Source: a virus
Virus record (IMG/VR): IMGVR_UViG_3300028584_000261
Coordinates: 1 to 37,318 of that record
DNA length: 37,318 bases
Strand: one strand, 5' to 3'
Shown here one piece after another: positions 4,120 to 37,318 of this stretch. A model generated the notes under the pieces. It worked only from the letters and a program-made list of their open reading frames with translations, was not told the origin of the DNA and searched no databases. Numbering within the stretch: position 1 is the stretch's first letter; each line of letters begins with the position of its first letter. The position numbers and the translations under genes were made by a program.

Positions 4120-5139
4120 TCACTCCTGTTTTCCGTCCGGATAACTCGCCTCGATCGTGCAGCGGTAGCTTTGCTGCCTGGATCCGCTCGAGGTCACCTT
4201 ATCGATCGACCAGTCGCCACGCATGAACGATGGCCACGTCGCATCGAGCTCGACCAGGCCCTCGGCGCCGAACGCCGGATTGCCAGGGCAGTCGATCCGG
4301 AGCTTTGTTTCCTGGCGCTTGGCCTTGCGCAGCTCACCCTCGCCGGCCGCCTTAGCCTCGTCCGCGTCCTGGTAGCGCTGGCGCACCTTGCGGAACGGCT
4401 CGCTGCCCGTCTCGACAAGGATCTCCTTTCCGCTGCCGCCGTCCCACCAGGCCGTTTTAACGCCCTTGACGCGGATCCGCGCATCGCTGTCGATGCTGGC
4501 CGCGATGAACGCTTTGCTGCCTGGCCGGTTGTCCTGCGTCACCGACAGCGTGACCTTCGGCATCGGCTTGCCACTCAGCGTCTTGAGCTGCCCGCGACGA
4601 GCCAGCACATACAGATCATTGACCGGCTTCGCGACCGCATCGAAGCGCTTGGCCAGGCGCGTCAGGAACGACGCGTCGGTCTCGTTCGACTGGTCGACAT
4701 GGGCGATCGCGATCGCCTCGAGGTCGGCCGCAACGCGGGGCGTAAACCCATGCCGGCCGACCACGCGGCGGAACACTTGGCCGAGCGTGGTCATGGCGTA
4801 GGTTTCGGAGCGCCTGGCCTTGAAGCCGGTCGGATCCGTGACCTTGAACGGCGCCGCCGTGGCGACGATCAGCATCAGCGCCGGGAATAGCTGCGGCGTC
4901 ACGCGCGTGACCGTGAACTCGCCTTTATCGACGAGCCCGGTCTCCTGGTAGCCCACGCGTAAACCGATCTTACTGTCGAAACTCGGCAGGCCGTCCAGGC
5001 CCTCGATGTTGACCGTCAATTTCAGTTGATCCGACTCGATGCCGGCGGCGTCGACGTGCTCCCAATCCACGAGCCGCGCGTTGATCAGCGCCGCGTTCGC
5101 GCCGTAGACCTCGACGGCCGGGGTATATCCGATTTCCAT
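4120..5139 (-). CDS. Tail protein, P2 gpD-like (late control D family)
   Basis: Last gene of the tail cluster after U and X. Family-typical N-terminus EVYGANAALINARLVDWEHVDAAGIESDQLKLTV. Start set at MEIGY (5139), which forms an ATGA overlap with the upstream ORF. Confidence 0.8.
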   Translation of the reverse strand: MEIGYTPAVEVYGANAALINARLVDWEHVDAAGIESDQLKLTVNIEGLDGLPSFDSKIGLRVGYQETGLVDKGEFTVTRVTPQLFPALMLIVATAAPFKVTDPTGFKARRSETYAMTTLGQVFRRVVGRHGFTPRVAADLEAIAIAHVDQSNETDASFLTRLAKRFDAVAKPVNDLYVLARRGQLKTLSGKPMPKVTLSVTQDNRPGSKAFIAASIDSDARIRVKGVKTAWWDGGSGKEILVETGSEPFRKVRQRYQDADEAKAAGEGELRKAKRQETKLRIDCPGNPAFGAEGLVELDATWPSFMRGDWSIDKVTSSGSRQQSYRCTIEASYPDGKQE

Positions 5140-9771: not shown

Positions 9772-10937
9772 TAAAGGACGTCCTCCAGGAACTCTTCGAT
9801 GATTTCATCGGTGGCGTTGAGCTGGTAGATCATGTGCTCGTTCGGCGCGTAGCGGCCGTAATCGATGCAGACGTACCAGGTGCCGTTTTTGTACTTCTCG
9901 ACGCTGTTCAGCTCGGGGTGCAGGTAAACCCGCCCGCCCGGGATGGTCTCGTCGGCCACGAGCGTCTGAATCCAGTCGTCAATTCGCTTGACTTCCTGCT
10001 CCATGAACGACGTCGTCAGATTCTTCGCCATCGCCTTTTGCGCCGCTTTCACGAGCTTTCGGGTGATGGCGTCCTCGAGGCCGACGTAACTGATGAACTT
10101 GCCGGTGATCGAGCGGTTGCCGATCAGCGAGAAGCCGCCCAGGGTGGTCCGCGCGTAGTAGCTGACGCCGTAGCGGTTGAGCAGATCGCCCTCGGTCGAC
10201 TTGTCGAGGATGTTGTACTCGACGGTGCGCGACACGTCGGCCGCGTAGGTCACCTGGTTGCCCGGGCTTTCCCACTGCTTGACCGCGGCCATGGCGGCGA
10301 TAGCCAGGCTCGAGGGCGGCAGGAACACGTTGGCCTTTGCCGCCTTGGAGTAGATCGCCGGCATCTGGTGCACCATGTAGCCGCGGTCGTAGCCAAGGGC
10401 AGCACCGCCGATCGCCTCGCTGTTGGTCACCTGGTTGGCCACCGTGGCGTCGAGGCCATCGAACACAAAGCGCGCGCGGATCCGCTTACCCAGGCTGGCC
10501 AGCTCGCTGTGCACTGCCTGCTTATCCGAGAAGCCAGGGGCGCCGATGATGGTCGGCACCTCGGCGCAGTTGGCCAGGGCCTGCAGGCCGAGCTTCTGCC
10601 CGGACGTGGCATCGACACCACCGATCACCGCGTTAACGGTGTCGGCCGGGGTCGCGCCCGCCTGCACCACCACCACATAGACCGGCACCTTGACCACTTT
10701 CAGGATCTGGTGGACAGCATGGTAAAGCGTGCCCTCCTCGGTTCCGGTCGGATCCAGCAGCGCGGCCAGGGTAAAGCTGTTGATGCGGAAGGGGGAATTC
10801 AGCGGGATGCTGGCGTCCTTTTTCGGCGCGGTACCGACCAGGCCGACGACGTTGTCGCCAAGCCCACCCATCGCCTCGGGAGATTCCGTCGCCTCGATAG
10901 AGACGCCGTTGTGCTCGAAATTGGTTACCTCGGCCAT
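9771..10937 (-). CDS. Tail sheath protein (P2 FI-like)
   Basis: 388 aa. Sheath-tube-chaperone-TMP gene order. Confidence 0.85.
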   Translation of the reverse strand: MAEVTNFEHNGVSIEATESPEAMGGLGDNVVGLVGTAPKKDASIPLNSPFRINSFTLAALLDPTGTEEGTLYHAVHQILKVVKVPVYVVVVQAGATPADTVNAVIGGVDATSGQKLGLQALANCAEVPTIIGAPGFSDKQAVHSELASLGKRIRARFVFDGLDATVANQVTNSEAIGGAALGYDRGYMVHQMPAIYSKAAKANVFLPPSSLAIAAMAAVKQWESPGNQVTYAADVSRTVEYNILDKSTEGDLLNRYGVSYYARTTLGGFSLIGNRSITGKFISYVGLEDAITRKLVKAAQKAMAKNLTTSFMEQEVKRIDDWIQTLVADETIPGGRVYLHPELNSVEKYKNGTWYVCIDYGRYAPNEHMIYQLNATDEIIEEFLEDVL

Positions 10938-27692: not shown

Positions 27693-28006
27693 CGCAGCGC
27701 CCTCACCCATCCAGCACGGGCGCCCTCGATCGAGCGATAGCCCGCATCGGAGAAGCCGCACGAGCAATACGCGCCCCACAGGCCGTCGCGCTGACGGAAA
27801 CGCGGCAACGGGGCCGCCTTGCAGCCGTGCCGAGGCATATCCGAGTCATTGATCAGGTTCCAGGAAGCCAGCGCGCGCGACTCTGACGTCGTCAGCTCGC
27901 CGCGATGCTTGCATCCAGCGCAGGCATAGACCCTCACATCACTGCTCGGGTCGAGGCGGCGCGCAGGAATGGCGCCGCATTGCGAGCAGGCAAGGGCGGC
28001 CATCAC
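27689..28006 (-). CDS. Lar-family-like zinc-ribbon protein (possible restriction alleviation), 105 aa
   Basis: CSQCG...YACAGC...ALASWN matches the Lar signature CxxCG...CxxC...A..WN. A degenerate second copy follows (YCSCG...ARAGW). Confidence 0.4.
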   Translation of the reverse strand: MMAALACSQCGAIPARRLDPSSDVRVYACAGCKHRGELTTSESRALASWNLINDSDMPRHGCKAAPLPRFRQRDGLWGAYCSCGFSDAGYRSIEGARAGWVRALR

Positions 28007-28854
28007 AGCCCCCTATCGAGCAAAACGAAGCCATAGCCGCGCATGGCCTTGCAAAGTGCCGTCAGCGCATCGCGATCGAGCTCTAGCAGAGTCTCGCGTA
28101 GCGCCTGCCAGCGGCCGGCCCAATGCTTGTCCCAATTTGCCACGCTGACACCGAGCAACTGCTGCAGGCGGGACGGCTGATGCAGCACCTTGCCGCAGTT
28201 CGCGGCCCGCTTCACGTCTTGAACGGCCAGGTGCGCCAGGCTGCGGACCTTCTGCAGCGTCTTCGCCTGGATCTTGCCGAGCGTTGGCTCGTGGCGCGCC
28301 CACAGGGCCGCAACAGCGCCCGCCTCGTCGTCCCACAGCTTCGAGTCGGCGTAGGCGTAGCGAATCCAGTGCTGCAGCTCAGGCGGCAGGCCGGCAACGG
28401 CGCGGACGACGTGAGCGTCCTGAAAGGCGAGCGGACCGAGGGGAATCGAGGCCTTCTTTTTCGGGCGGGTCTCGCTGGCGATCACGCGGGTGGTTCCTTT
28501 CGCCAGGCTGGCGACGTATGCGGCGGGGAGGCGCCCGACGTGATCACCATCCTCGGCAGGGCACTCGCGCAGCGCCTCGAGGTGCGCCGGGAAGGCCTCG
28601 CGGGTGTTTTCGGTCGTGTACTGGCCGACGAACTTGCCGTCGTGCTCGCGGAAGTGCTGCGCGCCCAGGAAGGCGCCGAGGACGAGATCACGCATGACGG
28701 CGCGGTCGTGCTCGAACACCTCGGGCAAGGGGCGTGGCTTGATCTTGGCCGACGGCTTGGCCGGGCTTTCGGTGCGGTCCAGGACATAGAGCGCACCGGA
28801 AACAGGGCAGGCAGACGAAGCAACGGGACGGCTAGACAGACTCAGCGTCTCCAT
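28003..28854 (-). CDS. Putative late antiterminator (phage 82 Q-like C-terminal domain), 283 aa
   Basis: The C-terminal region HWIRYAYAD ... LLGVSVANWDKHWAGRW parallels 82-type Q (..L.VEYL ... LLGISVSQFK.YV...W). It is the last large gene of the early operon, just upstream of the late promoter/terminators. Confidence 0.45.
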   Translation of the reverse strand: METLSLSSRPVASSACPVSGALYVLDRTESPAKPSAKIKPRPLPEVFEHDRAVMRDLVLGAFLGAQHFREHDGKFVGQYTTENTREAFPAHLEALRECPAEDGDHVGRLPAAYVASLAKGTTRVIASETRPKKKASIPLGPLAFQDAHVVRAVAGLPPELQHWIRYAYADSKLWDDEAGAVAALWARHEPTLGKIQAKTLQKVRSLAHLAVQDVKRAANCGKVLHQPSRLQQLLGVSVANWDKHWAGRWQALRETLLELDRDALTALCKAMRGYGFVLLDRGL

Positions 28855-29388: not shown

Positions 29389-29717
29389 TCTGCGCCCTCC
29401 TTTTTCCGTGACGGAAAGGCGAGTAACGGCCTGTAATCGTGACAGTCACGCCTAATCTGATCGGCCACATTGCGGGCCACTAGGGTGACGAACTCGGCCC
29501 ACTGCTCGAAACCCTCGGTCTGGCAAATCAGTTCGAGGTCGTCGCGCGTGCCCGGGTATACGTCGAACTTGTAGGGGAGGGACTGCGCGCGCACCAGGCT
29601 CGCGCCTTCGGCAGTGCGCTTGCGTTCTTGCCGCCTGCGGGCGAGCTCGCGCTGCCGCTCGGCAGGACCCAGCGGCTTGCCGTCTGGACCCATAATCACG
29701 GTCGCATGCCTACCCAT
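29385..29717 (-). CDS. Hypothetical protein with basic N-terminal segment (110 aa)
   Basis: Start set at MGRHATV (8-nt overlap with the upstream stop). Confidence 0.5.
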   Translation of the reverse strand: MGRHATVIMGPDGKPLGPAERQRELARRRQERKRTAEGASLVRAQSLPYKFDVYPGTRDDLELICQTEGFEQWAEFVTLVARNVADQIRRDCHDYRPLLAFPSRKKEGAE

Positions 29718-30321
29718 GGGCCACCGCCTTCGCGAAACGCTCCAGACGGGCCAGATCCGGCAGCGATCGGCCAGTACCAACGGCGACCGACGCGAGCTCG
29801 CTGATCATGCTCAGAACGGCGTCGAGGCCTTCGCGCAGCATCAGGTCGACCGCATCCGGGTCGTCGCGGAGCGAATAGCTCCCGTCATGGGCCGGGGTCG
29901 CGGCAGCGACAAAGGTTCCGAACTCCTGCAGCACCTTGGCCAGGTCGGACGGAACGGACGATGTGCGGGCCTGATAGGCGATGCGAGGAGCGCGAATATC
30001 AAGGCCGCCGACGAGCTCGATGCATTCACGACGAACGTCGTCAGCGATGCGAGCCGGTAGGCAACCGATCCAGGTCCATTTCCATTCGAGAGGGAACGAG
30101 CTCGTGCCGTTGAAGATGCGGCCGAGGCGTGTCGCCCAGGCTTTTCGCTCTTTCAGATAAGCGGCGCCGTCTGACTCCTCGAGGGCGACCTCGATCAGCC
30201 CCTCGGCGATCAGTGTGGGGGCTAGCAGCTCGTGCGCGAACCGCTCGACGTTCCACTCCGATTGCATGAACCATTGGTTCGTGTGCCGCAGCACGATTTC
30301 CCGTTCCGTCCTACCCTGCAT
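29710..30321 (-). CDS. First early-operon protein, divergent from cI (203 aa, no obvious HTH; weak resemblance to 186 CII/CP76-type regulators)
   Basis: GGGAGA RBS. Occupies the cro position. Only vague pattern similarity to CP76-type regulators (LGRIFNG..FPLEW, VLSMISELASVAV). Confidence 0.5.
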   Translation of the reverse strand: MQGRTEREIVLRHTNQWFMQSEWNVERFAHELLAPTLIAEGLIEVALEESDGAAYLKERKAWATRLGRIFNGTSSFPLEWKWTWIGCLPARIADDVRRECIELVGGLDIRAPRIAYQARTSSVPSDLAKVLQEFGTFVAAATPAHDGSYSLRDDPDAVDLMLREGLDAVLSMISELASVAVGTGRSLPDLARLERFAKAVAHG

Positions 30322-30468: not shown

Positions 30469-31134
30469 ATGAAAGATATTCAGCACATCGGGCCGGCCAT
30501 AAAGGCGCGGCGGCAGGCGCGCGGATGGAGCCAGTCGGCGCTATGCGAGGCAGCAGGGAACGCGATCAATACGAGCACGCTATCGACGACCGAGAACGGC
30601 ATGAGCCTGCCCAACGTGATGGCCGCTTATGCGGTGGCGAAAGCGCTTGGCACTACCGTCGAGGCGCTGATCGAGGAAGCGACCAATCCGGGCGCCGTTC
30701 GGAACCCCACAGAAACCGCCGAAAGGGTACCCGTCGTACCGTGGCACATGGCGGCCGAATGGAAGCTAAACCCCGATATTACGCGGCTTCCAGCGAATAC
30801 CCCGTGGGTTTTACCGCCTGAGAATTCGACGCCCGGCATGTTCGCCCTGGTCGTGCCTGATGACACCATGCATTCACCCAGCGGCTTGGCGTTTCCAGCC
30901 GGTTCGACCATCTTCGTGAACCCTCGGCGCGTGGCCGATGCGAACGACCTGGTCGTCGGCTATACGCACAAGGCCGAGGAGCTGACGTTTAAAAGGTTGA
31001 TCCAGGACGGAGCACAGCGGTACCTTCGACCGCTAAACCCTCAATTCCCGATGGTCTCGATCGACGGTAATTTCCAGGTTGTAGGGATAGTGACGGGCAT
31101 GCGAATGATCATCGAAAAGGGGGTCATTCGATAA
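30469..31134 (+). CDS. cI: Lambda CI-like repressor (XRE HTH plus S24 LexA-type C-terminal domain)
   Basis: The C-terminal domain aligns by eye with lambda CI (ELTFKRLIQDGAQRYLRPLNPQFPMVSIDGNFQVVGIV vs [38 protein letters not shown]). GAGAGG RBS. Divergent from the early operon. Confidence 0.9.
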   Translation: MKDIQHIGPAIKARRQARGWSQSALCEAAGNAINTSTLSTTENGMSLPNVMAAYAVAKALGTTVEALIEEATNPGAVRNPTETAERVPVVPWHMAAEWKLNPDITRLPANTPWVLPPENSTPGMFALVVPDDTMHSPSGLAFPAGSTIFVNPRRVADANDLVVGYTHKAEELTFKRLIQDGAQRYLRPLNPQFPMVSIDGNFQVVGIVTGMRMIIEKGVIR

Positions 31135-31224
31135 ACGGAAAAGTCAAGGTTTCGGTATTCTGAATAAATGACGTAGACTGCGGCCACCCCGCAGTTAATA
31201 GCTTTGCAAGGCACCAAAGAAAAA

Positions 31225-31250
31225 GCCCCGGGGTCTGGTAACCCCGGGGC
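31225..31250. terminator. Strong hairpin terminator after cI (better U-tract on the minus strand)
   Basis: GCCCCGGGG-TCTGGTAA-CCCCGGGGC. The plus strand continues CTTATT. The minus strand continues TTTTTCTTT. Confidence 0.6.
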
Positions 31251-31398
31251 CTTATTCGAATGACTGCCGACCCCGAAAGGGTGCAACAGTAGAGCTCAAC
31301 TTTTGGCGAATAATCTGTTTTGCGGGCAGGTTATCCAGTTGTAGCCAACAGCGAATGTTGAAGCTCAAGTGTAGCACCACGCGGTCGAGTGTCTAACG

Positions 31399-31442
31399 AA
31401 TGTTCTTTTGTGCTTTTGCGTTTTTGCGCAAAGGAACAAAAT
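31399..31442. promoter_or_regulatory. Repeat island D at the repA start (iteron/operator-like)
   Basis: CTTTTGTGC 31405-31413, CTTTTGCGT 31413-31421, TTTTTGCGC 31421-31429 (8-bp phase). Inverted GAACAAAAT at 31434-31442 overlaps the repA ATG. The 13-mer AATGTTCTTTTGT is shared with island C. Confidence 0.55.
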
Positions 31443-34400
31443 GCACAATAGGAATGACAACGCGAGCGCCCTGGCCCGTTTCTACGAGGAACGGTTCCGC
31501 TCTGACCCTTATGCCCTGGTCGATTATTTCGAGCACGACATCGCCGCCGCTGCGGCAGACGTCGGCATTAAATGGTCGGCGCTGCAACGCGACATCACTT
31601 GGGATGGCCAAAAGACTCGCCCCAAAGGCGCGGCATCGGTCACTGACAAGGCCCACCGGGGCAAGGTCATGGCGTGGGCCTCGATCAAGCGGGCCGACGA
31701 GTTCGAGTATCCCTTCGTCAACTTCACGAACAACAATCCGGCCGTCGGCAAATCGAGCTGGTCAGGCTTCGCGGCGCTGCTCGAGCTTTTCCGCGAGCAG
31801 GGCGGCACGGCTACCAGCAAGAAGCATGACGAGTGGCTGAAAAAGCAAGAAGCCGAGCGCGCCACGCGCGAGGCGGCACGCAAGGCCGCCGAGGAGAAGG
31901 CCCGCAAGGCCGAGGCCCTGGTCCATGGCGAGCGCCTGGCCTACGAGTCGGCCTGGCACTGCGGCGGACGCCATGCCTACCAATACGAAGCCGGCGGCAA
32001 GATCCGCGATGGCTTCGTCGAGCTGATCAGCGACGAGGACGGATCGGCCCCCTACCTGGTCGCCAAAGGCGTCAGCGCGGTTGTGTCACGCTTTCAAATG
32101 AAGCGTATGCGTGACGGTAACGGTTATTTTACAGCCGTTCCCCTGTACAACATCGACGGCCTGTTCCTCGGCCTGCAACGCCTCTACGCCAACTTCAAGC
32201 TCCAGGGCACCGGCGTGAAGATGGACGGAGCGCACTGCATCATCGGCGAGCTCGAGTCGGCCGAACTGGTCTATGCCGCCGAAGGCTTCGCCACCGGCGC
32301 AAGCGTCTGGCTAGCAGAGCACGAGGCCGGAAATAACGTCGCGGTGATCGTGACGTTCAACGTCGACAACCTGAAAAAGGTCGTCGCCGCTTACGCCAAG
32401 CGCTGCCCGAACCTGCAGATCCGCAACGCGGTCGATAATGACCAATGGAAGCCGGTCGCAGGTAACGCCGGGATGCTGGCCGCCCTCGAGCTCGCGCGCG
32501 ACTGCAACTCGCCGGCCCTGGTGCCCAATTTCGACGCCCTCGGCGCCGAGGCGATCGCCAAGTTCAAGGCCGACAAGAAAGGCCCTACCGACTGGAACGA
32601 CTACCACCTCGCTTTCGGCTTGAAGGCCATGGCAAAGGCCATGCGCGCCCGTTCTACCGTGTTCAAGCCTTACAAAGACTGGTTCGCCTACACCCTGCAG
32701 CGCCTCCAGTTCTCCGGCGTAACCGCCGAGAAGGCCGCGCGCCAGGCGATCAACGCGGGCATGTTGCTGGTTCCGATCAAGTATTCGGGCGAGGCCGTTC
32801 TCAAACTGGTGATGGAGCATATCCCGGAAGGCCCGAAGGTCGACCGGCCGAAGCTGCGCTCGTTCTGCCAGTGGCTCGCAAAGCAGAAGATCACCCAAGC
32901 CGCCGAGCTGCGTTCGTTCTCGCCGGCCACCCTGGCTAAGGGGCACATTCAGCACCTACGCATCGAGGGCGTGCGCCAGGCGCATGGCAACGTCGAGATC
33001 CCCGCGCACCTGGTTCACCTGATCGAGTCGATCGAGGGCTGCATCATCCTGCGCGCGCCCATGGGCAGCGGCAAAACCGAGAAGGTCATCGCGCCACTGA
33101 TCCGCGACGCCGCGAAGGGCGCCTATGTTGCCCACCGCGTCTCGCTGCTCGACGACGCGGCGGCACGTTTGAATCGGGTCACTGACAGCCAGGGCAAGGC
33201 CGCACGCAACCGCGACGGCAGCTATAAAACCGACGGCCTGGTCCACCACTATAAGCAAGTTATGGCCGCCTGGATGCGCGACGTCTCGCACCTCGCCTGC
33301 TGCGTCAACTCGATTACCGCCCCAAAGTTCTACAACGCCGACGAGCGTTCCTGGTTCACCACCGTGGACACCCTTTGCATCGACGAGGCCGGCCAGGTCA
33401 TCAGCCACGTCGCCTCCGGCCCCGTCGAGGGTCGCGTCCGCGTTTACGACGCCCTGATCGACGCCGTGCGCGACGCGAAGCGCGTGCTGCTGTGCGACGC
33501 CGACGCGAACGACAACGTCGTCGAGTTCTGCGAGCTCGCGCGCCCTGGCGAGAAAATCACCATCATCGAAGTGACCGGCAGCGCCGAGCACATCCGCGTC
33601 GACCACTCTGACGACGAAACCGTCTGGCAGGTTGCCCTCGACTGGATCTCGGCAGGCAAACGCGTCCTGATGGCGAACGACTCGGTCGAGAGCTGCAAAA
33701 AGCTCGCGGCCGTGATCGAGGAACGCCAGGAAGCGGGCGAGATCAAGCCTGTTCGGATGCTGGTCGTCCACCAGGGCAACAAAGGCGAGCCAGAGGTCGC
33801 CGCGTTCCTGCGCGACCCCGACGGCGAGGCCGTGAAATATGACGTCCTGATCTACTCGCCGGCCATCAGCTCCGGCGTGTCGATGACCTTCGGCGGCTCC
33901 GCGCACTTTGACCATCACGTCGGCCTATTCAGCGGCCAGACCGTCAGCCCCTCCGATGCGATCCAGATGCTTCGACGCGACCGGACAGCCCGTCACTACC
34001 TGGTCGGCCTCGGCCACGCGTCAGCGCAGCGCCAGACCGACAGCGAGGCACTTTATCGCGGGATGCTGCAGGCCGACGAGCAGACGTTCGGCTTCGAGGA
34101 AGGCGAGGGCGAGGTCCGCTTCGTTCGCAAGAAAACCGCCTTCGACATCACCTACCTGGCCAGCACCACCAGCGAGAACCGCGCGCGGAACGATTTCGCG
34201 AACAATTTCCTGCTGATGCTGATCAGCGATGGCTACCAGGTGCATCGCGCCAACCTTGACGACCCGGAGCGCACCAAGGAATCGCGGGCAAACCGCGAGC
34301 TCGGCGCCGTCCTGGTGTTCGAAAAGCGCATGGATCTGATCAACAGCGTCGAGACCCCGGACGACGAGACGTTCGCACGCCTGAATCGCCAGGAGGTGCG

Positions 34401-35295
34401 CAGCGAGCGCGAGAGCGCCCAGGTCGACCGCTACCACATGGCCAATCAACTCGGCGTCGACGAGCCGACCCCGGACGACGTAGCGTTCTATGACGACCGA
34501 GGCATCAGCCGCGTCGTCGCTATGGAGCTGCTGCAGTCGAGCGAGGAGCAAGCCCAGGCCTACGACCAGGCGCAACGCAAAGCGCGCGTCGTGCTGACTC
34601 AGCACCGCTACAAGTCGGCGGCCCGCGCGTTTCTGGTCAAGACCTTCGAAACGCTTGGCCTGGACCGCTTCACGGGCGAGGGATCCTTCACCGTCGACCA
34701 ATGCCGCCAGATCCTCGCAGAGATCCGCGCGGATCAAGCGAGCCTCGACCTTTACAACGCCCTCAAGCTGGGGCGCCTGTTGCCCTCGCTGACGGCCAAG
34801 GCCTGCGCGACGACGGTCGTCAAATCAATCATCGAGCGCCTCGGCGTCAGCGTGCATAAGCGCAAGACGAACGGCCGCAATGTTTTCGAGATCGATGCCG
34901 ATACCTGGCAGGTCATCATGGCCTACGTCGAGCAGCGCGCGGCCATTGGCGTTCACTCCCTGGCCACACACGAGACGGCGGCCCCCTACGAGCCGAAAAC
35001 CCTCGAGCAGCCTGCAGGCGAAGCCCCAGCCCAGCAGGGCGCCCTCGAGCGCGACAGGGACACTTTGCAGGGAGAGGTTAAAGACTCCGAAGAAAAGTAT
35101 CCCTTGAGCCTTGCGGAAAAAATCTACGCGGTCGCTGTTCGCTGTTCAAAGCCCCTCGGTATCCCGTTGGCGCAGGTTGTGGGGGCGTTTCGACGGGACA
35201 TCCTCGAGGACTGGGTAAGACCAGGCGCCGACGAACGGAGAATCGGGTTTGAACTCGAGTACGTGGCGCGGCTGATGCAAAAACCCGCGCTGTGA
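31441..35295 (+). CDS. repA: Replication protein RepA (primase/TOPRIM plus helicase), N15 RepA-like, 1284 aa
   Basis: TOPRIM-like AEGFATGASVW...VDNDQW, Walker A APMGSGKTEKV, Walker B LCIDEAGQV. Its size and its position between cI and the protelomerase match N15-type phages. Start set at MHNRND (AAGGA RBS) rather than 31408. Confidence 0.85.
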   Translation: MHNRNDNASALARFYEERFRSDPYALVDYFEHDIAAAAADVGIKWSALQRDITWDGQKTRPKGAASVTDKAHRGKVMAWASIKRADEFEYPFVNFTNNNPAVGKSSWSGFAALLELFREQGGTATSKKHDEWLKKQEAERATREAARKAAEEKARKAEALVHGERLAYESAWHCGGRHAYQYEAGGKIRDGFVELISDEDGSAPYLVAKGVSAVVSRFQMKRMRDGNGYFTAVPLYNIDGLFLGLQRLYANFKLQGTGVKMDGAHCIIGELESAELVYAAEGFATGASVWLAEHEAGNNVAVIVTFNVDNLKKVVAAYAKRCPNLQIRNAVDNDQWKPVAGNAGMLAALELARDCNSPALVPNFDALGAEAIAKFKADKKGPTDWNDYHLAFGLKAMAKAMRARSTVFKPYKDWFAYTLQRLQFSGVTAEKAARQAINAGMLLVPIKYSGEAVLKLVMEHIPEGPKVDRPKLRSFCQWLAKQKITQAAELRSFSPATLAKGHIQHLRIEGVRQAHGNVEIPAHLVHLIESIEGCIILRAPMGSGKTEKVIAPLIRDAAKGAYVAHRVSLLDDAAARLNRVTDSQGKAARNRDGSYKTDGLVHHYKQVMAAWMRDVSHLACCVNSITAPKFYNADERSWFTTVDTLCIDEAGQVISHVASGPVEGRVRVYDALIDAVRDAKRVLLCDADANDNVVEFCELARPGEKITIIEVTGSAEHIRVDHSDDETVWQVALDWISAGKRVLMANDSVESCKKLAAVIEERQEAGEIKPVRMLVVHQGNKGEPEVAAFLRDPDGEAVKYDVLIYSPAISSGVSMTFGGSAHFDHHVGLFSGQTVSPSDAIQMLRRDRTARHYLVGLGHASAQRQTDSEALYRGMLQADEQTFGFEEGEGEVRFVRKKTAFDITYLASTTSENRARNDFANNFLLMLISDGYQVHRANLDDPERTKESRANRELGAVLVFEKRMDLINSVETPDDETFARLNRQEVRSERESAQVDRYHMANQLGVDEPTPDDVAFYDDRGISRVVAMELLQSSEEQAQAYDQAQRKARVVLTQHRYKSAARAFLVKTFETLGLDRFTGEGSFTVDQCRQILAEIRADQASLDLYNALKLGRLLPSLTAKACATTVVKSIIERLGVSVHKRKTNGRNVFEIDADTWQVIMAYVEQRAAIGVHSLATHETAAPYEPKTLEQPAGEAPAQQGALERDRDTLQGEVKDSEEKYPLSLAEKIYAVAVRCSKPLGIPLAQVVGAFRRDILEDWVRPGADERRIGFELEYVARLMQKPAL

Positions 35296-35315
35296 TACTG
35301 TATGCATAACCAGCA
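35296..35315. promoter_or_regulatory. LexA (SOS) box-like operator
   Basis: TACTGTATGCATAACCAGCA: CTG-N10-CAG, 15/20 matches to TACTGTATATATATACAGTA. Overlaps a possible -10 (GATACT 35294-35299). Confidence 0.45.
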
Positions 35316-35352
35316 CGGCCATTTGAAATTAGCGAGCCAAGGAGTAGGAAAC

Positions 35353-35607
35353 GTGCCAATTCTCGACATGATGGACAACACAAGCGCGGGTATCCGCAGT
35401 GCCTTGGCGATCAGCCAAATGCTCGGGTTAAGCGCTCACCAGCTCACCCAGGAAGAGCTAGCCGAAGGCCTGGCCGTGCTGCGCGAGAAGCTGCAGCAGG
35501 TCGAGCAGTTGCACGAGGCCGCCTACTCCGTTGCGGCTCAAAAAGAAATGCCGGGGCAAGCCCCGGCATCTTTTCACCTCGCCAGCGTCAAGACGCTGAC
35601 CCGATAG
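35353..35607 (+). CDS. Orphan small helical protein (84 aa) in the repA-telN slot; candidate antirepressor
   Basis: AAGGAG (35339-35344) lies 8 nt before a GTG. G/C-ending codon bias. No recognisable domain. The ORF-track version starts at 35302 without an SD. Confidence 0.5.
   Translation: MPILDMMDNTSAGIRSALAISQMLGLSAHQLTQEELAEGLAVLREKLQQVEQLHEAAYSVAAQKEMPGQAPASFHLASVKTLTR
35540..35575. terminator. Bidirectional terminator between convergent smORF and telN
   Basis: 9-bp stem ATGCCGGGG-CAAG-CCCCGGCAT, flanked by AAAAAGAA and CTTTTC. Lies inside the 3' part of the smORF. Confidence 0.7.
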
Positions 35608-37150
35608 CCTTCTCGTAGACCTTGTGCATCGCGGCCATACGATCGCCGTCGACGACCGTGGCCAAGTCAACACCGTTGACGCGGGCCACGGCCTGCCACT
35701 GACCATCCTCGAGCTGGTGAACGGTCAGATGCGGTTTAGCCTTGGCCACCTCTTTCGGAACCGGCGCCGCGACCTCGGCGATGCCACGGTTCGGAATGGC
35801 CAACGCCTCGCCCGCGATCTCTAGATATTCCTTGATGTTGGGCCGGTAGCTGCCGACGTTGGTCTGTATCGCCTTTTGTGAGATCCGCGCCTCCGGCGCG
35901 GCTTTGACCGTTTCCTTAACCCATTGGTGGATCTTGTGCAGCGACGAGCTCGCCTTTATCCGCTCGTGCCCGTTGAGGGACTCCAGCGCCTCGAGGCGGC
36001 TTGCCCACTTGCCCGAAACCTCGGCCACTGGCCCGGACGGCTTTGTGTAGTCGAGCTTAAACGCCTTGTAGCTTTCCTGCGTACTCATGTCCTCGTGGCC
36101 GAGCATCGCCTGCCAAAACACGGTTTCGTTGACCTTTTTCCACTTCGGATCGCGCGCATAGTGCAGCTCGAAAACGGCCCGCGCCCATATCTTGCGGCTG
36201 TCCTTGAACACGCGGCGCGGGTCGTTGAATACGCGCTTTGTCAGTTGGTTCAGGTTGCTATGCACCCGATTGTTCACCGCGACGTTATCCATGCCCTGCA
36301 GCTCCTGGACCTCGGGCAGATCCCGCAGCGCCTTGATCGAAGCGAGCACCAGGTCAGCGGAAACGAGGGTATAGATCCGATAGCTGTCGGAGTAATCGAC
36401 GCCCTCGCGGCGCTTGGCCTGGCCGGCGAATTCGAGCTCGAACTCGCCCGCCTTCTTGAACCGGCCCAGCTTGAGCACCTCGATTTCGCGCCGGCCGGTC
36501 GCCAGGGCGATGCCGAGGGTCAGATGCGAGAAGTAGGGCGAGACGGTGCCGTCGCCGCGCAGTTGCTGCGCCGACAGCAGTTCGTTGATCGTGGCCATCA
36601 GCCAATGAAAATTTATCTCGACCGAGTTCGTCGCCTGGACCTCGAGGCGCTCGACCGCCTCGGACGCGAGCTCGGCTTTCGTGGCGGCTGGAAGGGTCAG
36701 ATGCCGCATGATCTCGTGGTCGAGCTTGAGCGTGCGGATAGCCTCGTAGGCGTCGTCGTCGCGAGCCCTGCGAACCTCGGTCAATAGGTCGCGGTGCGCG
36801 AATCGCAGATCCTTGATGTCGGCGTGATCGAGCATCGCCTGCAGCGCCTCGGCCCACTGAGGATGCTTGCGGGCGATGCGCCCGACGGACTCCTCGAGCG
36901 CGTGATGCCGCCAGTTCTGCGCGGTGACCGCGTTGCGGATGATGGTCAGATAACGGCGGTAGCTGGCCGGCGCGAGCTTGTCCTCGTCCTTCCGGCGGCG
37001 ATCCTCGTACAGACCGTTTTTGATGCGATCGGCGAGCCGAGCCAGGCGCTTCGTTTTGTCGCCGCGGCTCAGTTGCACGTCGCCATCGATAGCGCGAACG
37101 CCGTCCAGCAATGTGCGAGTTACGTCCTCTAGATCAACCTTCCTGCCCAT
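35588..37150 (-). CDS. telN: Protelomerase (telomere resolvase, TelN/TelK family), 520 aa
   Basis: Tyrosine-recombinase-like catalytic core (ALATGRREIEV box, GHEDMSTQESYKAF with candidate catalytic Tyr). Adjacent to the terminal palindrome. AAGGAGG RBS 7 nt before the ATG at 37150. Confidence 0.85.
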   Translation of the reverse strand: MGRKVDLEDVTRTLLDGVRAIDGDVQLSRGDKTKRLARLADRIKNGLYEDRRRKDEDKLAPASYRRYLTIIRNAVTAQNWRHHALEESVGRIARKHPQWAEALQAMLDHADIKDLRFAHRDLLTEVRRARDDDAYEAIRTLKLDHEIMRHLTLPAATKAELASEAVERLEVQATNSVEINFHWLMATINELLSAQQLRGDGTVSPYFSHLTLGIALATGRREIEVLKLGRFKKAGEFELEFAGQAKRREGVDYSDSYRIYTLVSADLVLASIKALRDLPEVQELQGMDNVAVNNRVHSNLNQLTKRVFNDPRRVFKDSRKIWARAVFELHYARDPKWKKVNETVFWQAMLGHEDMSTQESYKAFKLDYTKPSGPVAEVSGKWASRLEALESLNGHERIKASSSLHKIHQWVKETVKAAPEARISQKAIQTNVGSYRPNIKEYLEIAGEALAIPNRGIAEVAAPVPKEVAKAKPHLTVHQLEDGQWQAVARVNGVDLATVVDGDRMAAMHKVYEKAIGSAS

Positions 37151-37167
37151 CTTCGTGCCTCCTTTGG

Positions 37168-37297
37168 CATACACCGTTAAGCATAGCGGCAATTCTACAG
37201 CCTGCATTCATACACCGCAACGCATTTATCATGCAACATACACCTTTGCGCAAAGTACATAAATGCGTCAAGGTGTATATATGTGCAAAGGTGTATG
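37168..37297. repeat. Subtelomeric octamer array overlapping the telN leader/promoter
   Basis: CATACACC at 37168-37175, 37209-37216 and 37237-37244 (+). GGTGTATA/GGTGTATG at 37272-37279 and 37290-37297 (-). Confidence 0.8.
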
Positions 37298-37318
37298 CAC
37301 CCTATGCGCCTTATATAC
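37282..37318. repeat. Right terminal inverted repeat (telR half)
   Basis: TGTGCAAAGGTGTATGCACCCTATGCGCCTTATATAC is the exact reverse complement of 1-37. The joined ends give a 74-bp palindrome with a TATATAC|GTATATA core. Confidence 0.9.

Follow-up and report, generated by a model that had tools for sequence, protein, structure and literature searches.

The DNA analysed here, referred to as the window, is the whole viral record IMGVR_UViG_3300028584_000261 (positions 1-37,318, that is 37,318 nucleotides; G+C 64%), and the element under study is a LexA-type (SOS) box followed by a short open reading frame (smORF) in the 292-nt slot between the replication gene repA and the protelomerase gene telN. 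On the right side of the window the genes follow each other in the order CI-type repressor (plus strand), repA (plus strand), box and smORF, and telN (minus strand). Nucleotides 1-37 are the exact reverse complement of nucleotides 37282-37318 (..CTTATATAC / GTATATAAG..), and with one half of a telomere palindrome at each end the window represents an entire linear plasmid prophage. The TelN protein shares 53% identity with its counterpart in Halomonas phage phiHAP-1 and 47% with the one in Vibrio phage VP882, which makes the window a hapunavirus-like telomere phage. The repA-telN slot is known for sensory modules that act independently of SOS, namely Qtip and the pairs of a transcription factor (TF) and a smORF. 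An earlier reading made from the letters of the window (the sequence-only reading) had proposed that here an antirepressor in this slot is gated by the host LexA instead; the features concerned are listed in Table 1.

Table 1. Coordinates of the LexA box, the smORF and the genes and signals around them in the window
Feature	Position	Strand	Remarks
LexA (SOS) box TACTGTATGCATAACCAGCA	35296..35315		core CTG-N10-CAG 35298-35313; directly after repA TGA
Inferred smORF promoter	35272..35301	+	geometry only
Shine-Dalgarno (SD) sequence AAGGAG	35339..35344	+	8 nt before GTG
smORF, 84 codons + stop, candidate Qtip-like antirepressor	35353..35607	+	GTG start
telN intrinsic terminator hairpin, inside smORF coding sequence	35548..35569	-	called on minus strand only
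CI-type repressor (HTH_3 + degenerate Peptidase_S24), presumed smORF target	30469..31134	+	Pfam, PHROG
repA (longest ORF; relatives' gene calls start ~11 codons later)	31408..35295	+	stop codon abuts LexA box
telN (protelomerase)	35588..37207	-	3' end overlaps smORF by 20 nt
CII-like activator, first gene of divergent lytic operon	29710..30321	-	PHROG phrog_4834, phrog_304
Q-like antiterminator in divergent lytic operon	28003-28854		

The box CTGTATGCATAACCAG matches 15 of the 20 positions of the palindromic form TACTG(TA)5CAGTA (TACTGTATATATATACAGTA). The bare pattern CTG-N10-CAG occurs 13 times in the window against 10.8 expected, which is chance level, and for this reason the full site was scored with a position-specific scoring matrix (PSSM) built from 29 Escherichia coli SOS boxes. 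With this matrix the box reaches 24.0 bits, the median of the 29 training sites, and the next best site in the 37.3-kb window reaches 7.5 bits and the best among 200 shuffles 16.4 bits, so that no second LexA-like site showed up in the scan of the complete genome. The phage phiHAP-1 likewise has a single LexA site in 39 kb, at the same place and with 24.0 bits versus 8.6 bits for the next one. The sequence-only reading had described the position, the CTG-N10-CAG form and the 15/20 agreement of the box, together with the SD sequence, the GTG, the 84-codon frame, its overlap with telN and the lack of a phage-encoded sensor in the slot, and all of this was borne out: the 292 nt hold only the box and the smORF, and the PSSM scan of the window turned up no other box.

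The position of the box is conserved far beyond the window. A TelN-profile scan of IMG/VR gave 52 loci, which were pooled with the loci already collected, and the related loci surveyed in this way have TelN proteins that are 50-95% identical. Among them are 48 short-slot loci (the window and 47 relatives, including phiHAP-1 and Pseudomonas aeruginosa plasmids) with a telN-repA gap of 278-330 nt. In 48 of 48 the box lies at the repA stop, which it abuts or overlaps, scores 15.5-30 bits and is the top site of its locus, in L033 as a tie with its own inverted second copy. When 47 distinct sequences are anchored on the box, the information amounts to 2.0 bits at CTG and CAG and to near zero in the flanks, so that the box is the sole conserved DNA element of the region; the operator itself is thus under selection. 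Furthermore, in an alignment of the window with eight contigs from the matching protein clusters (nine sequences in all), TGATACTGTA and CCAG are invariant, five interior positions of the box vary, and each of the close relatives carries a single high-scoring box, in the corresponding position. The phiHAP-1 region has no detectable DNA similarity to that of the window, and its slot consists of the repA stop, TACTGTATACTTGAACAGTA, an SD sequence, the 95-codon gp35 with the telN terminator inside, and the overlap with telN. In the clinical P. aeruginosa plasmid pNY5520-NR (L068, positions 4796-5120), the repA stop is followed by TACTGTACAAACAACCAGTA, AGGGGAGGG and a smORF with a TTG start (MQCREKMDRASAKLSRA...), which is absent from the distributed gene table of the plasmid. 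The survey also contains seven long-gap loci (1,060-1,680 nt, VP882-type, with space for a transcription factor), where the slot score is at most 3.6 bits in five of the seven, and L063 has a 14.1-bit site. Two loci that combine a long TF-type slot with a non-canonical CI, L060 and L061, carry a 15.5-bit LexA-like site (near 9849 and near 63, respectively) about 100-150 nt upstream of the telN start.

The close relatives are 27-39-kb contigs in P. aeruginosa assemblies and Pseudomonas plasmid records. Since the GTDB representative genomes gave no match to TelN and none to the exact degenerate box pattern, the host assignment rests on these assemblies and plasmids. The LexA of P. aeruginosa is taken to have the general gammaproteobacterial specificity; a literature search for a P. 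aeruginosa LexA consensus string returned no match. A DNA search with the repA-telN slot among 50,697 phage records returned no match either.

The geometry around the box would fit a promoter that LexA occludes. A putative -35 element CTGATG (35272-35277) is separated by an 18-nt spacer, with TG at 35293-35294, from the putative -10 element TACTGT (35296-35301), the hexamer with which the LexA box begins; the corresponding arrangement in the phiHAP-1-type loci is TTGACC-18-TACTGT. Downstream of the box, at a distance of 2-15 nt, the window-type lineage has a semi-conserved element GGC-N3-5-TT(G/A)ACA (35317-35331 in the window). Its spacing does not suit sigma-54, and a reading of that kind was rejected; nor did the RNA show a significant fold there.

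The smORF itself behaves as a gene. The SD sequence (A/G)AGGAG and the GTG are invariant in the nine aligned sequences, and the distance from the box to the start is 37 nt in the window and 24-43 nt across the 48 loci, each of which has an SD-preceded open reading frame (ORF) of 83-98 amino acids that overlaps telN by 14-49 nt. The homologues of the window smORF fall into seven protein clusters (73-92% identical, 78-87 amino acids). Over the first 67 codons the median pairwise ratio of nonsynonymous to synonymous substitution rates (dN/dS) is 0.19, the variable sites are distributed over the three codon positions as 20/19/42, and the indels in the nine-sequence alignment come in multiples of three. 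The tail, with a median dN/dS of 0.37, is less constrained as a protein and is also constrained by a hairpin and by telN on the opposite strand. The smORF is a real protein-coding gene under purifying selection. A longer ORF of 101 codons from ATG 35302 was rejected, because the relatives have ACG or ACA there and the start is not conserved.

The hairpin within the smORF had been taken by the sequence-only reading for a bidirectional terminator, which did not hold: the plus strand has no T-run in the window, and more clearly so in the relatives. As it is terminator-like on the minus strand only, it is assigned to telN. It is invariant in the nine sequences and has a fold z-score of -4.4 to -4.5. 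The MPGQAPA motif of the smORF product (codons 66-73) is the translation of this hairpin, GCCGGGGCAAGCCCCGGC, and the coding sequences of phiHAP-1 gp35 (KKGPALERQP) and of Qtip also contain the telN terminator, so that one sequence does two jobs on opposite strands.

AlphaFold2 predicts the smORF product to be a two-helix hairpin (helices 2-30 and 33-64, predicted local distance difference test above 90) with a disordered tail. Neither Pfam nor PHROGs assigns it to a family, and Foldseek against BFVD returned generic helical hairpins only, all with E >0.3, in line with the helical protein of no recognisable domain that had been expected. The smORF had also been called an orphan; this description has to be given up, as members of the family are present in all 48 short-slot loci. 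The family is nevertheless narrow, since a profile search of 1.84 billion representative proteins added only two further true relatives. By BLAST, the 44 distinct smORFs separate into a window-type cluster and a cluster of the phiHAP-1 gp35 type, and the smORF gave no BLASTP alignment with phiHAP-1 gp35, Qtip or 186 Tum. Compared as profiles with hhalign, the two clusters match with a score of 24.6 (P 4e-4), against a mean of 9.4 and a maximum of 14.5 in the column-permuted null and 15.3 in the reversed control.

A kinship with Qtip was examined in the same way, with a Qtip profile made of two sequences. The hhalign score was 18.9 (P 0.007) for the gp35 cluster, 15.8 (P 0.02) for the window cluster and 19.5 (P 0.003) for the combined family; for the latter, the permuted mean is 8.7, the permuted maximum 11.3 and the reversed control 11.3, so that the match, weak as it is, lies above all 39 permuted controls. 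All three alignments have one register in common, in which Asp13 of Qtip aligns with Asp8 of the window protein and Asp11 of gp35. No column of the smORF family is more strongly conserved than that of Asp8, where 39 of the 44 sequences have D and five have E, and D13A of Qtip is the only single substitution which abolishes the inactivation of cI and leaves the polar localisation intact (Silpe et al. preprint). Membership of the smORF in the Qtip family is thus suggested, not conclusively, by the profile comparison. Two database relatives of Qtip, P0015 and P0016, consist of a C-terminal fragment of VqmA-phi fused to the C-terminus of Qtip and resemble the vqmA-phi/qtip deletion variant named in the Qtip preprint.

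The presumed target of the smORF product, the CI-type repressor, has a recognisable Peptidase_S24 domain (PF00717, E-value 1.5e-12) with altered catalytic residues. In the alignment with LexA, lambda CI and VP882 cI, its WHMAAEW corresponds to VQAGMF of lambda CI and VQAGLW of VP882 cI, so that the scissile Ala-Gly has become Ala-Ala, and DDTM stands in place of G(D/N)SM, so that Thr takes the place of the Ser nucleophile; the Lys (FKRL) is still present. The sequence-only reading, which had judged this CI to be defective in self-cleavage, is supported at the sequence level by the relatives as well. Ala-Gly is found in none of the 45 CI proteins of the short-gap loci, where the P1' residue is A in 35, H in three, S in two and V, E, D, T or L in one each. 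At the Ser position the 45 proteins have T (20), S (15), G (5), L (4) or A (1), and in seven the Lys is replaced by Arg. Altogether, 30 are without Ala-Gly and Ser, seven without Ala-Gly and Lys, and eight without the Gly only. The scattering of residues at the Ser and P1' positions across the clade indicates relaxed constraint on catalysis. VP882 cI, which self-cleaves with activated RecA (RecA*), keeps Ala-Gly, Ser and Lys, and several other long-gap loci are also without the canonical triad (the alignment being uncertain at that distance), so that the correlation is one-sided. Phage HMP1, which has 92% average nucleotide identity to phiHAP-1, is induced by mitomycin C, and the phiHAP-1 clade therefore receives an SOS input. 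A mitomycin-inducible clade whose CI is not cleavable requires an antirepressor, and the early-gene region yielded no antirepressor-like gene besides the smORF.

We consider it reasonably probable from these comparisons that the smORF encodes a LexA-gated small antirepressor, which would be the DNA-damage input of the lysis-lysogeny switch; the binding of LexA, the promoter and the interaction of the smORF product with CI are what we infer here. In a lysogenic cell, a dimer of LexA bound at the one SOS box would keep the smORF silent, because the box overlaps the likely -10 element of a promoter that lies within the last repA codons. Upon DNA damage, RecA would be activated, LexA would cleave itself, and the smORF would be transcribed and translated. 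The two-helix protein would then bind CI, probably at the N-terminal DNA-binding domain as Qtip does, and CI would leave its operators and free the divergent lytic operon. This cII-like/Q-like operon, whose layout is common to the window, phiHAP-1 and VP882, is the one expected to be under CI repression. The loss of the Ala-Gly site and of the Ser nucleophile from its S24 domain would leave CI unable to sense RecA* on its own, and this domain probably serves for dimerisation only.

Several points weigh against this model and have to be considered together with the other explanations. As regards the box, the scoring matrix is that of E. coli, and the specificity of P. aeruginosa LexA, which was assumed, may differ. 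That the motif arose by chance and is followed by a spurious ORF has practically no probability left: the bare CTG-N10-CAG is indeed at chance frequency, but such a reading is refuted by a full-site score above all shuffles, by a box position kept in 48/48 loci amid unconserved flanks, and by the purifying selection on the ORF. As regards transcription, the -35 element CTGATG matches at 3/6 positions and is poor in the window lineage, and a consensus promoter scan calls no promoter at the box. No plus-strand terminator was found between cI/repA and the smORF or after the smORF; transcription running on from repA would accordingly be expected to include the smORF in the lysogen too, and an antisense transcript of telN is possible. 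An RNA structure that would hide the SD sequence specifically in the read-through transcript was not found, the leader folding no better than shuffles. The missing terminator, the weak -35 element and the contact of the box with the repA stop in all loci would also fit a LexA site whose main role is that of a roadblock or insulator at the repA end, limiting smORF read-through and telN antisense, with the smORF expressed from the repA transcript. We hold this to be very improbable, since the -10 element within the box and the 18-nt spacer reproduce the geometry of 186 p95 and the TTGACC of the phiHAP-1-type loci is a good -35 element; moreover, the functional outcome would be the same as in the antirepressor model, with the smORF going up after LexA cleavage. 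To our knowledge, LexA is not established as an efficient roadblock.

As regards the repressor, Thr could in principle be the nucleophile, and cleavage at a non-canonical site is conceivable. CI might then still be cleavable, by Thr, at another site or by another protease, and the LexA-smORF arm would be auxiliary or accelerating; the window CI does keep the S24 fold and the Lys, and eight relatives keep Ser and Lys and lack the Gly only. Such a course seems improbable to us, because the Ser position varies freely across the clade and P1' is never Gly, and changes at the Ala-Gly site, such as LexA G85D and the lambda ind- substitutions, block cleavage. As regards the product, it resembles Qtip weakly (P 0.003-0.02), and the proteins compared are short and helical. 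In addition, the smORF of locus L045 shares 98% identity with its phiHAP-1 (L001) counterpart, but between the two CI proteins the identity is no more than 50% for the N-terminal and 37% for the C-terminal domain. This appears to be an immunity swap, and it argues against a strict one-to-one co-evolution of smORF and CI; the specificity may be broad, as for the Gifsy antirepressors, or the target may not be CI. LexA could accordingly gate the smORF and the product act elsewhere, as a modulator of RepA or TelN in the passage from maintenance to lytic replication or as a host-directed factor, e.g. a division inhibitor. It would agree with this that the smORF is invariably found in the repA-telN slot and reaches into telN, that it does not follow the CI swap of L045, and that no domain or structural match points to its function. 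We nevertheless regard a target other than CI as rather unlikely, since the Qtip and TF-smORF genes of the same slot inactivate cI by experiment, the smORF family is in register with Qtip including the essential D13, and the clade is inducible with a non-cleavable CI and has no other candidate or LexA box in the genome.

An extension of the antirepressor model, which seems doubtful to us, is that the transcript released by LexA has two functions, as mRNA of a Qtip-family antirepressor and as telN antisense, and that the latter would lower the protelomerase at induction and shift the replicon from the hairpin-ended plasmid to lytic forms. It draws on the lack of a plus-strand terminator and on the convergent overlap of the 3' ends of smORF and telN, which all 48 loci and also VP882 retain. 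As a corollary, LexA gating would be the widespread, perhaps ancestral, state of the Qtip slot, and the quorum-sensing and other TF modules would have arisen later when a TF gene replaced the LexA operator.

Some further features of the window and its relatives should be recorded. The RefSeq label of the repA homologue is 'plasmid replication protein, CyRepA1 family'. Between cI and repA there is a strong hairpin with a 14-bp stem (31222-31253), which is terminator-like on the minus strand only, and phage N15 has an annotated stem-loop at the matching place (cB-repA). Repeats resembling ACACCTTTGC(A/G)CA occur near both ends of the window. Moreover, several Pseudomonas 'circular plasmids' of 75-79 kb look like dimers in which two copies of an element of about 38 kb are joined head to head. 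Two records were inspected, pNY5520-NR (NZ_CP096940.1, 77 kb) and the IMG/VR contig 2713897325_000002 (L033/L035), and both have two inverted copies of telN and repA around a telomere site; for NZ_CP115281.1, NZ_CP102178.1 and NZ_AP022474.1 the dimer state was deduced from the size and from two or three matching places. These records are either the result of assembly running through the hairpin or replicative intermediates.

The part of the sequence-only reading that places a LexA-gated antirepressor in the Qtip slot has gained comparative support from the box, the ORF, the CI proteins and the Qtip profile. Its claim to novelty has to be narrowed. The logic of a LexA-controlled antirepressor is already known from 186, from the Gifsy phages and from N15, itself a telomere phage, whose AntC was reportedly described as such by Mardanov and Ravin in 2007, so that the arrangement cannot be called undescribed for telomere phages. 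The novelty lies in the presence of a LexA-smORF module at the Qtip slot in HAP-1-like phages, in the probable relationship of this module to Qtip and in the degenerate state of the S24 repressor, none of which was described in the literature searched, a search that did not extend to the original phiHAP-1 paper; the GenBank record of phiHAP-1 lists gp35 as hypothetical and annotates no LexA site. The analysis indicates that the HAP-1-like phages possess the small-protein half of the module, wired to the host LexA instead of a phage TF, and that the residues needed for self-cleavage are gone from their S24-type repressors. If true, it would explain how phiHAP-1-like phages, including elements of clinical P. 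aeruginosa, sense DNA damage, it would provide the first relatives of Qtip, and it would offer a route between SOS-gated and quorum-gated induction by exchange of the regulator at one antirepressor gene. It also means that a Pfam match to Peptidase_S24 does not by itself make a phage repressor autoproteolytic.

Among the known systems, phage 186 has a promoter of the same geometry as the putative one in the window: the annotation of its p95 gives TTCACA-18 nt-TACTGT, and the first 6 nt of the LexA box form the -10 element. Its Tum is a small antirepressor that inhibits the DNA binding of a CI which is not self-cleaving. However, Tum has 146 amino acids, of which one half is DinI-like, and no detectable similarity to the smORF, and 186 is an integrating P2-like phage. 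In Gifsy-1 and Gifsy-3, the LexA-controlled small antirepressors GfoA and GftA are encoded outside the immunity region (Lemire et al. 2011). The Gifsy phages are unrelated lambdoid integrated prophages, likened to the window here by description and not by protein comparison. Some Gifsy antirepressors act on non-cognate repressors, and by analogy such non-cognate action could explain the CI swap in L045. For the telomere phage N15, three publications (PMC4488713, PMC3121763 and PMC10432266) present AntC as a small antirepressor under a LexA-repressed promoter, acting on a non-proteolytic repressor. The N15 CB protein has neither the cleavage site nor the catalytic Ser and Lys, despite its RefSeq label as LexA-family. 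The location differs from that in the window, since the LexA box of N15 lies at 39,562 in the right arm and its repA-telN slot holds genes 30-36, and the 79-amino-acid ORF behind that box has no profile similarity to the smORF family (within the shuffled null).

The closest counterpart by position is Qtip of VP882, which occupies the same slot between repA and telN, adjoins telN, lies on the same strand as repA and has about 80 amino acids; as in the window smORF, its 3' end overlaps telN and the telN terminator hairpin lies inside it. Qtip and the products of other TF-smORF genes inactivate cI by experiment (Silpe and Bassler 2019; Silpe et al. 2020, 2023), and Qtip acts on the N-terminal domain of cI. 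The presumed target of the smORF would be the same domain, in a CI without the self-cleavage residues that VP882 cI retains. In a 2025 mBio survey (PMC12802170) the HAP-1-like phages are stated to be without a TF-smORF module, and Silpe et al. 2023 had phiHAP-1 among 274 loci and set aside the phages with non-proteolytic repressors. The slot of the Qtip and TF-smORF modules is about 1,060 nt long and contains the gene of a phage transcription factor, which is transcribed divergently and whose product activates the smORF, whereas that of the window, with about 290 nt, has no TF gene, and an operator for the host LexA takes the place of the TF. The input into this slot would therefore be SOS-dependent, which is opposite to the published role of the TF-smORF modules.

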